Shown here one piece after another: positions 19,381 to 21,476 of a DNA stretch of 32,000 bases. The number at the start of each line of letters is the position of its first letter. Position 1 is the stretch's first letter. The position numbers and the translations under genes are program-made. This DNA is from Candidatus Heimdallarchaeota archaeon (GTDB lineage: Archaea > Asgardarchaeota > Heimdallarchaeia > JABLTI01). The stretch is from the NCBI GenBank assembly GCA_030614005.1, contig JAUWKS010000001.1, positions 30,001-62,000 of the forward strand. The letters are read 5' to 3'. The notes below the pieces were generated by a model. That model saw nothing but the letters and a program-made list of their open reading frames with translations, did not search any database and was not told the origin of the DNA.

Positions 19381-20604
19381 ATGAAGAGAATAACAAAAGT
19401 TACAGAACAAACTCTTACAGGGACAAATCTTGTTAATTGGCTTCGGTTGTTGCGAGATAACAAATACAAAATTAGTTGGCGTTATCTTCCTCGAGCTCTT
19501 TTTATCAGTTTAATTACTTCTTTAACTGCACCCTTTGCTCTCTACGAAAAACTTCGCTATCGCAAAAAAATTAAACAAACCAAGATTACCAAACCACCTG
19601 TTTTTATCATTGGTCACTGGCGCAGTGGTACTACTTTCTTACAGACGTTAATGATTAAGGATCAGCATTTCGCTTATGTTTCAAATTTGCAAGCATTCAT
19701 GCCTTCAGTTTTCATTAGTGGAGGACGGTTTTTTAAGCATATTCTGAAGCGCCTTATGCCTTCAAAACGAAGAATGGATAATATGAGACTTGGTGTTTAC
19801 GAACCTCAAGAAGAAGAATATGCTTTAGCAAATCTCACAAATATGTCTCTCTATCATGGCATGGTTTTTCCTCAAAACCTTCGCGAATATTCCAAGTACT
19901 GTTCATTTGATGGTCTTCCTGAAAAGAAAGTAGTCAAATGGAAGAAAGTATTCCAGCAGTTCCTTCAAAAAATAACCTATTATTCAAATGGCAAACAGCT
20001 CATACTAAAGAATCCTTCAAACACTTTCCGAATTAGGCTTCTCCTTGAGATGTATCCTAACGCAAAATTCATCCATATTTATCGTAATCCTTACGATGTT
20101 TATCTCTCTACTTTGAAATTGTACAATGATATGTTTCCTTATTTCTTCTTACAAGATCCCTACACGAATCAGGAAAGTCAAGAATTTATTATTGATTTAT
20201 ATGAAGAAATGTTTATCAAATATTTCGCAGAGAAAGATCTGATACCAGATGGGAATCTCATTGAAGTTAAATATGAAGACTTTGTTCAGAATCCTATCCA
20301 AGGTTTACAAACTATTTACCAAAACCTTGGCTTGGAGAATTTTGAAGAATCCTGTGAACATTTCAACAATCATTTAGAATCCGTTAAAGGATACAAGAAA
20401 AACAAACATGAGCTTGATGAAAAAATAATTGAAAAGATTTCTAACAGATGGCAGCTTACCGTTCAAAAATGGGGTTACGGTCGTGTTGAACGTGTTGCAA
20501 AACGCGTTGAACGTAAAGGCACTCGTTTAGAAAAACGGTTTGAAAGAAAAGAAAAACGCTCAGAACAAGATGGTTCTTCCACTCACTTCTTCTTGCAGGA
20601 CTAG
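19381..20604 (+). CDS. PAPS-dependent sulfotransferase (Sulfotransfer_3 / Stf3-like)
   Basis: 5'-PSB GHWRSGTTFL, PQEEE, LKNPSNTFR, 3'-PB HIYRNPYDVYLS, VKYEDFV. Confidence 0.92.
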   Translation: MKRITKVTEQTLTGTNLVNWLRLLRDNKYKISWRYLPRALFISLITSLTAPFALYEKLRYRKKIKQTKITKPPVFIIGHWRSGTTFLQTLMIKDQHFAYVSNLQAFMPSVFISGGRFFKHILKRLMPSKRRMDNMRLGVYEPQEEEYALANLTNMSLYHGMVFPQNLREYSKYCSFDGLPEKKVVKWKKVFQQFLQKITYYSNGKQLILKNPSNTFRIRLLLEMYPNAKFIHIYRNPYDVYLSTLKLYNDMFPYFFLQDPYTNQESQEFIIDLYEEMFIKYFAEKDLIPDGNLIEVKYEDFVQNPIQGLQTIYQNLGLENFEESCEHFNNHLESVKGYKKNKHELDEKIIEKISNRWQLTVQKWGYGRVERVAKRVERKGTRLEKRFERKEKRSEQDGSSTHFFLQD

Positions 20605-20673
20605 AAGTCCAGTTCGGTAATGACATACTTAGGTGGTAATTACAAGCAGGTTAAGCCTTTCGCCCGAAGACTC
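20580..20673 (+). repeat. 94-bp direct repeat, copy 1
   Basis: 82/94 identical, ungapped, to 21383-21476; overlaps the sulfotransferase stop. Confidence 0.9.
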
Positions 20674-20770
20674 AAAGTGACGATTTTTAGTGTTCATTTG
20701 GATATGTGATTAGTGATTATAATATAAGACTTTAAAATGAAGGATGAGTATAATAATATGAGAGATAAAT

Positions 20771-21007
20771 ATGTCTAAAACAAATTTCACAGCACTTATT
20801 TGGGAAGAAGAAGGAAGCTATGTTTCAAAATGTCCCGAAATCGAAATCGCATCTGCTGGCGATACCCCTCAAGAGGCTCTTGAAAACTTAAAGGAAGCAA
20901 TTGAGTTATGGCTTGAAAATGCAAAAGAGCTAGGATTCCTTGATGATTATTCACTAATATTTTCTACTAAGCAAAAATTCACAAGCCAAATTGAGATGGA
21001 CATATGA
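20771..21007 (+). CDS. hicB: HicB-family antitoxin (short UPF0150 type)
   Basis: YVSKCPEIEIASAGDTPQEALENLKEAIELWLE matches the HicB pattern; own AT-rich promoter; ATGA overlap with hicA. Confidence 0.9.
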   Translation: MSKTNFTALIWEEEGSYVSKCPEIEIASAGDTPQEALENLKEAIELWLENAKELGFLDDYSLIFSTKQKFTSQIEMDI

Positions 21008-21242
21008 CAAAATTACCAACTATTTCTGCAGCTAAATTAATACGCAAGTTGTTAAAAGCTGGTTTTCAAGATGCTCCAAAAAGAGGGAAAGGTAGTCATC
21101 GAGCGTTAATTAGAAGAGATAAAGAAGGAAAACACATCTTGTCATCATTCCTATGAGAGATGCTATTCCAAAAGGAACTTTGCTTTCTATTATAAAACAA
21201 AGTGGTCTCTCACGAGATGAGTTTATCAAATTATTGAAATGA
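21004..21242 (+). pseudogene. hicA: HicA-family toxin, frameshifted
   Basis: MTKLPTISAAKLIRKLLKAGF...KGSH; one A missing in the A4 run 21129-21132; the other frame continues HLVIIPMRDAIPKGTLLSIIKQSGLSRDEF, giving a 79-aa HicA. Confidence 0.85.
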
Positions 21243-21382
21243 AAAACACTTATTCAAATTTAATCGAATCTAGCCTAGTCTAAGCCTGAGAAATAAAATA
21301 AAAATGCAGAAACTTTCAATTTCAAATTAATTTAACTTTCACAAAAGAAAATAAAAAATTAATCAAAAGTGTAGAATCACTG

Positions 21383-21476
21383 CACCCACTTCTTCTTGAA
21401 GGTCTAGAAATCCAGTTCGGTTATGACACGCTTAGGTGGTAAGTACAAGCTGGATGAGCATTTCGCCCGAAGACTC
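21383..21476 (+). repeat. 94-bp direct repeat, copy 2
   Basis: 803 bp offset from copy 1; lies upstream of the glycosyltransferase. Confidence 0.9.

Follow-up and report, generated by a model that had tools for sequence, protein, structure and literature searches.

Fragments of the 23S rRNA gene end bound an inserted toxin-antitoxin and glycosyltransferase block in a Heimdall-group Asgard archaeon

Results

Structure of the hicBA locus

We analysed a stretch of 32,000 nucleotides (nt) from the genome of a Heimdall-group Asgard archaeon (G000:C71:30001-62000), hereafter the window, where G000 denotes the genome under study and positions are those of the window unless a contig is named. The subject of this work is a hicBA-type toxin-antitoxin pair that is bracketed by two direct repeats and lies between a sulfotransferase gene and a glycosyltransferase (GT) gene. 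We found that the repeats are almost certainly "tails" of the 23S ribosomal RNA (rRNA) gene, that is, copies of its 3' end and of the trailer behind it, which mark an inserted block of gene cassettes. The block sits on the 173-kb contig C71, far from any rRNA gene; the resident 23S gene is on contig C95. Comparisons were made with 10 genomes of the same genus (congeners) and with 30 genomes belonging to the other genera in this class. The locus is composed of the following features:

19381..20604, plus strand: sulfotransferase gene (Pfam PF13469, 113.5 bits), whose native part ends at 20578, with 20579-20604 supplying eight tail-derived codons and a TAG stop
20579..22856, no strand: inserted block of two cassettes, 2,278 bp, absent from three related lineages
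20580..20673, minus strand: tail 1, with the last 57 nt of 23S at 20617-20673 and the first ~37 nt of the trailer at 20580-20616
20771..21007, plus strand: hicB-like antitoxin gene, 78 amino acids (aa; Pfam DUF7387, 27.7 bits; UPF0150 and HicB_lk below cut-off)
21004..21243, plus strand: hicA toxin gene, frameshifted, with two fragments matching HicA_toxin
21270..21382, minus strand: distal trailer of tail 2, by gapped alignment to C95 29104-29250
21383..21488, minus strand: core of tail 2, with the proximal trailer at 21383-21419 and the last ~63-69 nt of 23S from 21420 to ~21482-21488
21517..22851, plus strand: GT gene, 444 aa (Pfam EryCIII-like_C and Glyco_transf_28)
22857..24195, minus strand: native chromosome, intergenic and then a gene for a pyridoxal phosphate (PLP)-dependent, threonine-synthase-like enzyme at 22987-24195 (Pfam PALP, 237 bits)

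A repeat search reproduced exactly the pair described in the initial annotation: two 94-nt copies (20580-20673 and 21383-21476) that align without gaps, are identical at 82 of 94 positions (87%), and are offset by 803. Copy 2 was recovered at E = 4e-27 when the genome was searched by BLAST with copy 1. The GC content of the copies (0.457 and 0.479) exceeds that of the DNA between them (0.312) and of the window as a whole (0.335), confirming the earlier remark that the repeats are more GC-rich than their surroundings (46-48% vs 31-33%). Copy 2 is longer than 94 nt, with trailer homology reaching back to ~21270 and 23S homology continuing to ~21482-21488, and nhmmer matched it over 21360-21488 at E = 3e-35. 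The repeats had been described as non-coding elements bracketing hicBA. They do bracket it, but copy 1 codes for the final eight codons and the stop of the sulfotransferase open reading frame (ORF) and is therefore not purely intergenic. The identities first proposed for the neighbouring genes, a sulfotransferase (PF13469) and a GT of the GT28/UDPGT type, were supported by Pfam.

The hicB-like gene is preceded at a distance of ~20 nt by a putative TATA-like box, and its G010 orthologue exceeds the Pfam cut-off with 29.0 bits. The two pieces of the split hicA score 21.1 and 18.6 bits against HicA_toxin (Pfam cut-off 27), and the intact 79-aa orthologue on G010:C2, which shares about 88% nt identity, scores 43.7 bits. 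The distal part of tail 2 contains a hairpin-like element, a T-rich stretch, and the palindrome remnant GTAGAATCAC; judging from its sequence, the T-rich stretch could be terminator-like in the 23S sense. This distal piece also sits after hicA in metagenome contigs L239, L240, and L242. The GT stop codon falls 5 nt short of the right end of the insertion.

The repeats derive from the end of the 23S rRNA gene

One copy of the repeat, on C95, abuts an ORF-free region that Rfam identifies as an archaeal 23S rRNA gene. This resident gene (C95:25794-29052; RF02540, 2542 bits) has its 3' end at C95:29052. As revealed by the Rfam alignment, the reverse complement of the repeat consists of the last 23S helix with its UUCG loop, the 3' terminal strand, and then sequence from behind the gene. 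Read in reverse complement, each tail reproduces the final 57-63 nt of 23S followed by 35-50 nt of 3' trailer. By BLAST, copy 1 is 82.6% identical to C95 28996-29087 and copy 2 is 86.8% identical to C95 28990-29103 over 114 nt. The tails align to the 3' terminal helices of RF02540 as well as to the resident gene, as expected of an archaeal large-subunit rRNA fragment. Neither Rfam at its gathering threshold nor ARAGORN returned a match in the window, and the copies go undetected by Rfam because they are too short and too diverged to score alone as rRNA.

These alignments changed how the repeats are to be understood. The minus-strand UUCG loop noticed in the initial annotation exists and is the tetraloop of the last 23S helix; it belongs to an rRNA helix and does not denote a new RNA. 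The same alignments overturn the idea of an unrecognised class of sequence, be it a miniature inverted-repeat transposable element (MITE) or a free-standing structured RNA, since the repeats are fragments of the 23S 3' end and trailer. A match to a gene fragment had been regarded in advance as fatal to a cassette interpretation. Such a match does occur, yet it explains the origin of the site and leaves the cassette behaviour standing.

Co-folding the 23S leader with the trailer predicted a long stem of which the repeat core is the 3' strand, and under this folding model the stem is the pre-23S processing stem. The window tails are 75-87% identical to the genuine tails of four species, a comparison that did not identify the donor lineage. 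As a separate observation, the last 750 nt of the resident 23S gene (L017 positions 4300-5053, equivalent to G000:C95 28299-29052) carry three extra segments of ~70, 70, and 128 nt relative to the Rfam model.

Empty and filled alleles define a base-precise insertion

The block is missing from the corresponding site in three related lineages. The closest orthologues of the sulfotransferase are found in G001 (91% aa identity) and G010 (85% aa identity), whose empty sites are denoted L051 and L052, respectively. The third empty lineage is represented by L238, a 69-kb Logan metagenome contig with 88% nt identity over the syntenic flanks and a 399-aa sulfotransferase belonging to the same 90% cluster. 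In the empty alleles, the 3' end of the PLP-enzyme gene follows the sulfotransferase stop by 47-65 nt; in the window this gene starts at 22987. All three empty sites read GTTCTT/GAGC (with the slash marking the joint), and the window reads GTTCTT, then 2,278 bp, then GAGC. The inserted block has the order tail-hicBA followed by long tail-GT. It cuts the sulfotransferase TGA stop codon between T and GA, so that the ORF gains eight codons and ends at a TAG within tail 1. There is no target duplication and no target loss at 20578/20579 or at 22856/22857. The insertion is base-precise, and the locus possesses the precise empty and filled alleles that are typical of elements at gene 3' ends.

The filled allele was also recovered independently of the G000 assembly. 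One contig, from another study and about 96.5% identical, covers 18800-21622; a further one reads through the right junction; and a 12-kb contig from a separate assembly carries a 407-aa sulfotransferase together with HicB and GT. Because the filled arrangement appears in separate assemblies from two studies, it is not an assembly artefact. The initial annotation had anticipated an empty allele in which a single repeat joins the sulfotransferase and GT genes. An empty allele does exist, but it lacks both repeats as well as hicBA and GT, and the anticipated single-tail joint was not found among the contigs aligned to the locus, which cannot prove its absence. Scanning metagenomes with a 17-mer of the empty site returned at least 120 loci, none of them homologous to the flanks among the matches listed, as the pattern is too short.

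A second variable spot was observed near the locus. In L238, ~2.2 kb of other genes (2182-4383) replace ~6 kb of the window (12838-18847), including a 788-aa response-regulator/PAS gene at 16481-18847.

Cassettes recur with different neighbours and break within a narrow zone

The tail-hicBA unit is present on G010:C2 at 84-88% nt identity, where it lies behind an unrelated 645-aa gene, and the sulfotransferase site of the same genome is empty. Five metagenome contigs (L239-L243) also carry the unit, with HicB at least 90% identical and with at least four left and at least four right neighbours. Wherever the left flank is present (L240, L241, L243, and L244), homology to the window starts at 20580-20584, which is the left edge of tail 1. 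The GT, whose gene belongs to the accessory cassette cargo, was found in only one of the 10 congeners (G006, 63% aa identity), again directly after a tail and among different neighbours. Its stop codon in G006 falls within the outer motif of the next, truncated tail. Co-oriented repeats around small cassettes that recur elsewhere, one of the features by which integrons are recognised, are therefore found here.

A different portion of a tail is found at each end of the hicBA unit. One end has the 23S fragment with the proximal trailer; the other has the distal trailer, which comprises the hairpin-like element, the T-rich tract, the palindrome, CxCAC, and TTCTTCTT. Given these two trailer ends, a circle formed from the unit would contain one complete tail. 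Partial tails at the right ends of cassettes give way to unrelated DNA after TTCTTCTTGAA, TTCTTCTTGAAGG, TTCTTCTTT, or GGTCTAGAC. Junctions with unrelated DNA cluster within ~25 nt along the trailer-distal edge (CxCAC box, TTCTTCTT, GAAGG), a zone that is also the best-conserved block in an alignment of 39 tails. The empty target contains TTCTTGA, identical to the 7-mer at the centre of this most conserved tail block. At the window itself, the left junction reads GTTCTT/CCACTCAC... and the right junction ...ATACAC/GAGC, and the two have no duplicated core in common. A single crossover at TTCTTCTT/GAAGG or at the edge of the CxCAC box was considered and rejected, as neither suits both junctions. 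The target sequence GATRGTTCTT bears only a weak likeness to the tail outer motifs TGATGCTC and GTAGAATCT, and we do not rely on it.

The locus has since begun to decay. Alignment to G010:C2 revealed a -1 frameshift in hicA, with one A missing from a run of A residues near 21128. That A is retained in contigs from runs X2 and X9, and one of these contigs instead lacks a base at 21045, at 8x depth. This suggests the toxin gene decayed independently, although at such low contig depth the difference may be an error. A contig from a third study joins 21289 to 22756 via the 9-nt microhomology AAATAAAA, with the result that tail 2 and the first ~1.24 kb of GT are gone and the last ~96 nt of GT stay. 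The locus looks like a fixed, decaying relic of a past insertion and not like an active site.

Tails form a co-oriented family across the genus

The family is not limited to the two copies in the window; had these been the only ones, that would have counted, by the criterion set in the initial annotation, against mobility. Genome-wide BLAST found 13 clear copies in G000, iterated nhmmer found 15, and a broader profile found 16. Tails are present in nine of the 10 congeners, with the largest genome count being at least 21 copies, and in none of the 30 genomes from other genera. The exact core pattern is confined to Heimdall-labelled metagenome-assembled genomes (MAGs) and two oddly binned contigs. 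A search of viral contigs with the tail core gave 0 matches and identified no vehicle.

Among the matches listed, contigs with multiple copies always carry them on one strand (7 of 7 on G010:C33, 7 of 7 on G005:C98, 5 of 5 on G010:C28, and 5 of 5 on G006:C217). The sole opposite copy in G000 (C95:20598-20665) is upstream of the 23S gene. We observed that the inverted copy, taken as C95:20598-20687 and lying ~5 kb upstream of the gene, is fused to a 33-nt piece of the 23S interior (C95 28770-28802). The array on C95 starts at the genuine 23S end, whose own tail is followed by two more copies, at 3.2 and 1.4 kb. An array of five to six copies on C102 is interspersed with the gene pairs MNT-HEPN, VapBC, and DUF433-DUF5615, a leucine-rich repeat protein, and a few further genes. 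In general, tails separate toxin-antitoxin and other small accessory genes, which can be on either strand relative to the tails. In this genus, small accessory gene units are joined by tails that share one orientation, in line with the earlier proposal that the repeats are cassette joints.

A lone orphan tail (G000:C112:14640-14989, denoted L018) retains at least 300 nt of the 23S 3' region. Its 23S part matches the 23S gene of congener G005 at 60 of 64 positions vs 57 of 64 for the resident gene, and this slight sequence preference for G005 hints that cassettes may travel between species. There was no clean empty site for this single tail, with the intergenic DNA at that place in G010 being unrelated. 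A second, small repeat family was also apparent. Its ~28-nt palindromic element, CCCTACAGTCTCAGGTGAGACTAGGG, lies beyond the T-rich tract that trails the 23S gene, and further copies, some of them not accompanied by a tail, occur at other places. It is found at G000:C95:29117-29183 (L017 5117-5183), with copies at C102 4654-4770 and 10303-10366 and at C66 8346-8402 and 4924-4971.

Discussion

On balance, we lean towards tails acting as the sites of a dedicated recombination system. A fuller version of this proposal is put forward more tentatively: an undescribed gene-capture system of Heimdall-group Asgard archaea, acting in trans, may use the outer edge of the 23S trailer for recombination. 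It would be functionally an integron, with an rRNA gene tail taking the place of attC, and its units could also insert ectopically and base-precisely at TTCTT/GA look-alikes. The movable unit would be a full tail (23S fragment, trailer, and terminator-like distal part) together with a promoter and one to few genes. In circular form, such a unit would recombine conservatively with another tail. Its primary landing pad would be the trailer just after the genuine 23S gene, where the incoming copy would substitute the distal trailer. The rRNA gene would gain an equivalent distal trailer and terminator, so that rRNA processing and termination would be kept, and an orphan tail would be left further downstream. 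Landing behind the 23S gene would explain both the co-orientation of tails and the C95 array, and the same reasoning applies to elements integrating at the ends of tRNA genes. In the window, the two-unit block (tail-hicBA, long tail-GT) would have landed ectopically on TTCTT/GA in the sulfotransferase stop codon. The enzyme would be a recombinase acting in trans and not encoded by the cassettes, either the single Xer-like tyrosine recombinase of each genome or an unrecognised protein. That the insertion was base-precise and hit a look-alike 7-mer favours a conservative and site-directed reaction over random joining.

A number of results weigh against such a system. There is no recombinase gene in or beside the arrays examined: PF00589 has one match per genome and on other contigs, with the single G000 match being on C58 and none on the array contigs of G004, G005, G006, G009, and G010. 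No recombinase domain was detected in the cassettes of C95, C102, or G010:C2, and the cassette ORFs of the window encode HicB, HicA, and GT. Among five genomes, serine recombinases are lacking in four (G000, G006, G009, and G010), and Y1 and IS110 transposases are lacking in all five. Tails do not form a conserved hairpin on their own, as RNAalifold over 39 tails gave -0.3 kcal/mol and three trivial pairs. In a dif-type core, a spacer of 6 bp (4-10 bp) separates two inverted arms of ~11 bp each (PMC2958812). No core of this 11-N-11 kind (spacer 6, 4-10 bp) was found in the tail core, and matches in the flanks were equalled by about half of shuffles. No circular intermediate was seen, and the only population variant found is the microhomology deletion and not a site-specific excision. 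Finally, the window tails are old, given their 75-87% identity to any genuine tail, and the cut site is not fixed to the nucleotide, as the window junctions fit no single crossover.

Several of these observations are compatible with there being no dedicated enzyme at all. Tails would then serve as 60-200 nt of portable homology, with homologous recombination looping cassettes out and in and rare illegitimate joining making the ectopic loci. No recombinase is linked to the arrays, and the sole change within the population is the 9-nt microhomology deletion 21289/22756. Crossovers inside tails would be expected to produce every combination of left-edge and inner tail variants, and all four are observed. 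Module exchange by homologous recombination between tandem elements is also described in a review of archaeal integrated elements (PMC8371274). We nonetheless regard the account as doubtful. The ectopic insertion took place base-precisely at a tail-less site, with nothing lost and nothing gained, which is rarely the outcome of illegitimate joining. Moreover, TTCTTGA in the target matches the middle of the best-conserved block of the tails, and a single narrow zone is where partial tails stop in several independent contexts. Homologous recombination between tails is a serious rival when it comes to shuffling within arrays, but it leaves insertion at a tail-less site unexplained.

The remaining explanations fare worse. 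Tails could be kept for an RNA or transcriptional role, whether as terminator or insulator modules or as plus-strand antisense to the pre-23S trailer and 3' end, an idea that fits the core being the 3' strand of the pre-23S processing stem, the T-rich, terminator-like tract of the long form, and the somewhat better conservation of the tail 1 trailer core (43/50) vs its 23S part (44/59). We consider this improbable because the partner strand from the leader is repeated nowhere, self-structure is not conserved, cassette genes lie on both strands relative to the tails, and the empty and filled alleles and changing neighbours would be left unexplained. The notion of a MITE, or of an insertion sequence (IS) or transposon end with cargo, is largely refuted and strikes us as very improbable: the sequence is plainly the 23S end and trailer, copies are strictly co-oriented in arrays, the block ends have neither terminal inverted repeats nor a target-site duplication, and the five genomes are devoid of Y1 and IS110 transposases. 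This is despite the family being multi-copy and dispersed, the presence in copy 1 of a short hairpin, GGACT-AGA-AGTCC, ~18 nt in from its left end, and an insertion that, like those of IS200/IS605, duplicated no target sequence. Archaeal MAGs have been reported to contain integrons, and co-oriented repeats between small, toxin-antitoxin-rich cassettes are reminiscent of sedentary chromosomal integrons. Even so, a true integron array with divergent attC sites has next to no probability and is refuted on the properties of the sites. In agreement with the earlier statement that the repeats are not attC, the 39 tails share no consensus hairpin. The R boxes are not conserved either, with GTTAAGC (GTTRRRY) in copy 1 only and GATGAGC at the same place in copy 2, while integrases are absent near the arrays and the cassettes appear to have their own promoters.

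The closest parallels to the proposed tail-based system, together with sedentary integron arrays, are integrative elements and integrase-less derivatives that accrete in tandem at gene 3' ends, such as islands at tRNA and transfer-messenger RNA genes, satellites of the cis-mobilizable element (CIME) type, and the staphylococcal cassette chromosome (SCC) at rlmH. They share direct repeats that copy the 3' end of the target gene, an array that starts at the genuine gene (as on C95), co-oriented flanking repeats, precise empty/filled borders, and integration that would regenerate a functional gene end. Here, in contrast, the target is the trailer of a 23S rRNA gene, the units are 0.7-4 kb without an integrase, there are many ectopic copies, and the crossover appears to be behind the mature RNA and not inside it. 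An element at the genuine target gene is true of the C95 array but not of the window block, which occupies a site that is tail-less in three relatives.

The arrays also resemble sedentary chromosomal integrons and integrase-less attC clusters in their one-directional repeats, toxin-antitoxin-rich units of one to three genes, and the occurrence of a unit with varying neighbours. They differ in having no attC hairpin, R boxes, or IntI, in the seemingly own promoters of cassettes, and in having genes on either strand. Xer-dependent integrative mobile elements (IMEX) and the dif modules of Acinetobacter plasmids are likewise small modules, often toxin-antitoxin, without their own recombinase, and tails would need a host tyrosine recombinase in the same manner. 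The Xer-like tyrosine recombinase, at one gene per genome, is the only classical recombinase common to these genomes. Sites of dif modules alternate in orientation. Here there is no 11-6-11 inverted repeat beyond chance, and the repeats are direct copies of an rRNA tail. The cargo in the window conforms to the HicAB type II toxin-antitoxin systems in its HicB-like/HicA pair, overlapping genes, and putative promoter of its own, and departs from them in that the antitoxin gene comes first and has a short, 78-aa form, and in the frameshifted toxin gene of G000.

We found no description of 23S genes or tails as archaeal attachment sites or cassette joints in literature whose coverage was thin for subscription journals, and a 2021 review of archaeal tyrosine recombinases leaves rRNA unmentioned. 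What this locus contributes is an ectopic before/after pair, with three empty alleles and one filled allele, that arrays behind the rRNA gene such as that on C95 cannot provide. It shows that tail-bounded blocks reach new chromosomal places base-precisely, and it leaves about 25 nt in which to look for the cut site. If the proposed system is real, accessory and defence genes in the archaeal group nearest to eukaryotes would have the end of an rRNA gene as their landing pad, a role like that of bacterial tRNA gene ends and integron sites but with another site and enzyme. From a practical standpoint, orphan tails disrupt metagenome assemblies and may pass for novel RNAs or attC-like sites.

Additional observations upstream of the 23S rRNA gene

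Two further features were noted upstream of the 23S gene. In G000, a 126-nt direct duplication with 81% identity is located at G000:C95:24376-24501 and 24872-24997. In two congeners, homologues of the sulfotransferase (52-58% aa identity) lie ~3 kb upstream of the 23S gene, at G005:C98:95811-96904, where the gene is split, and at G007:C99:35649-36818.

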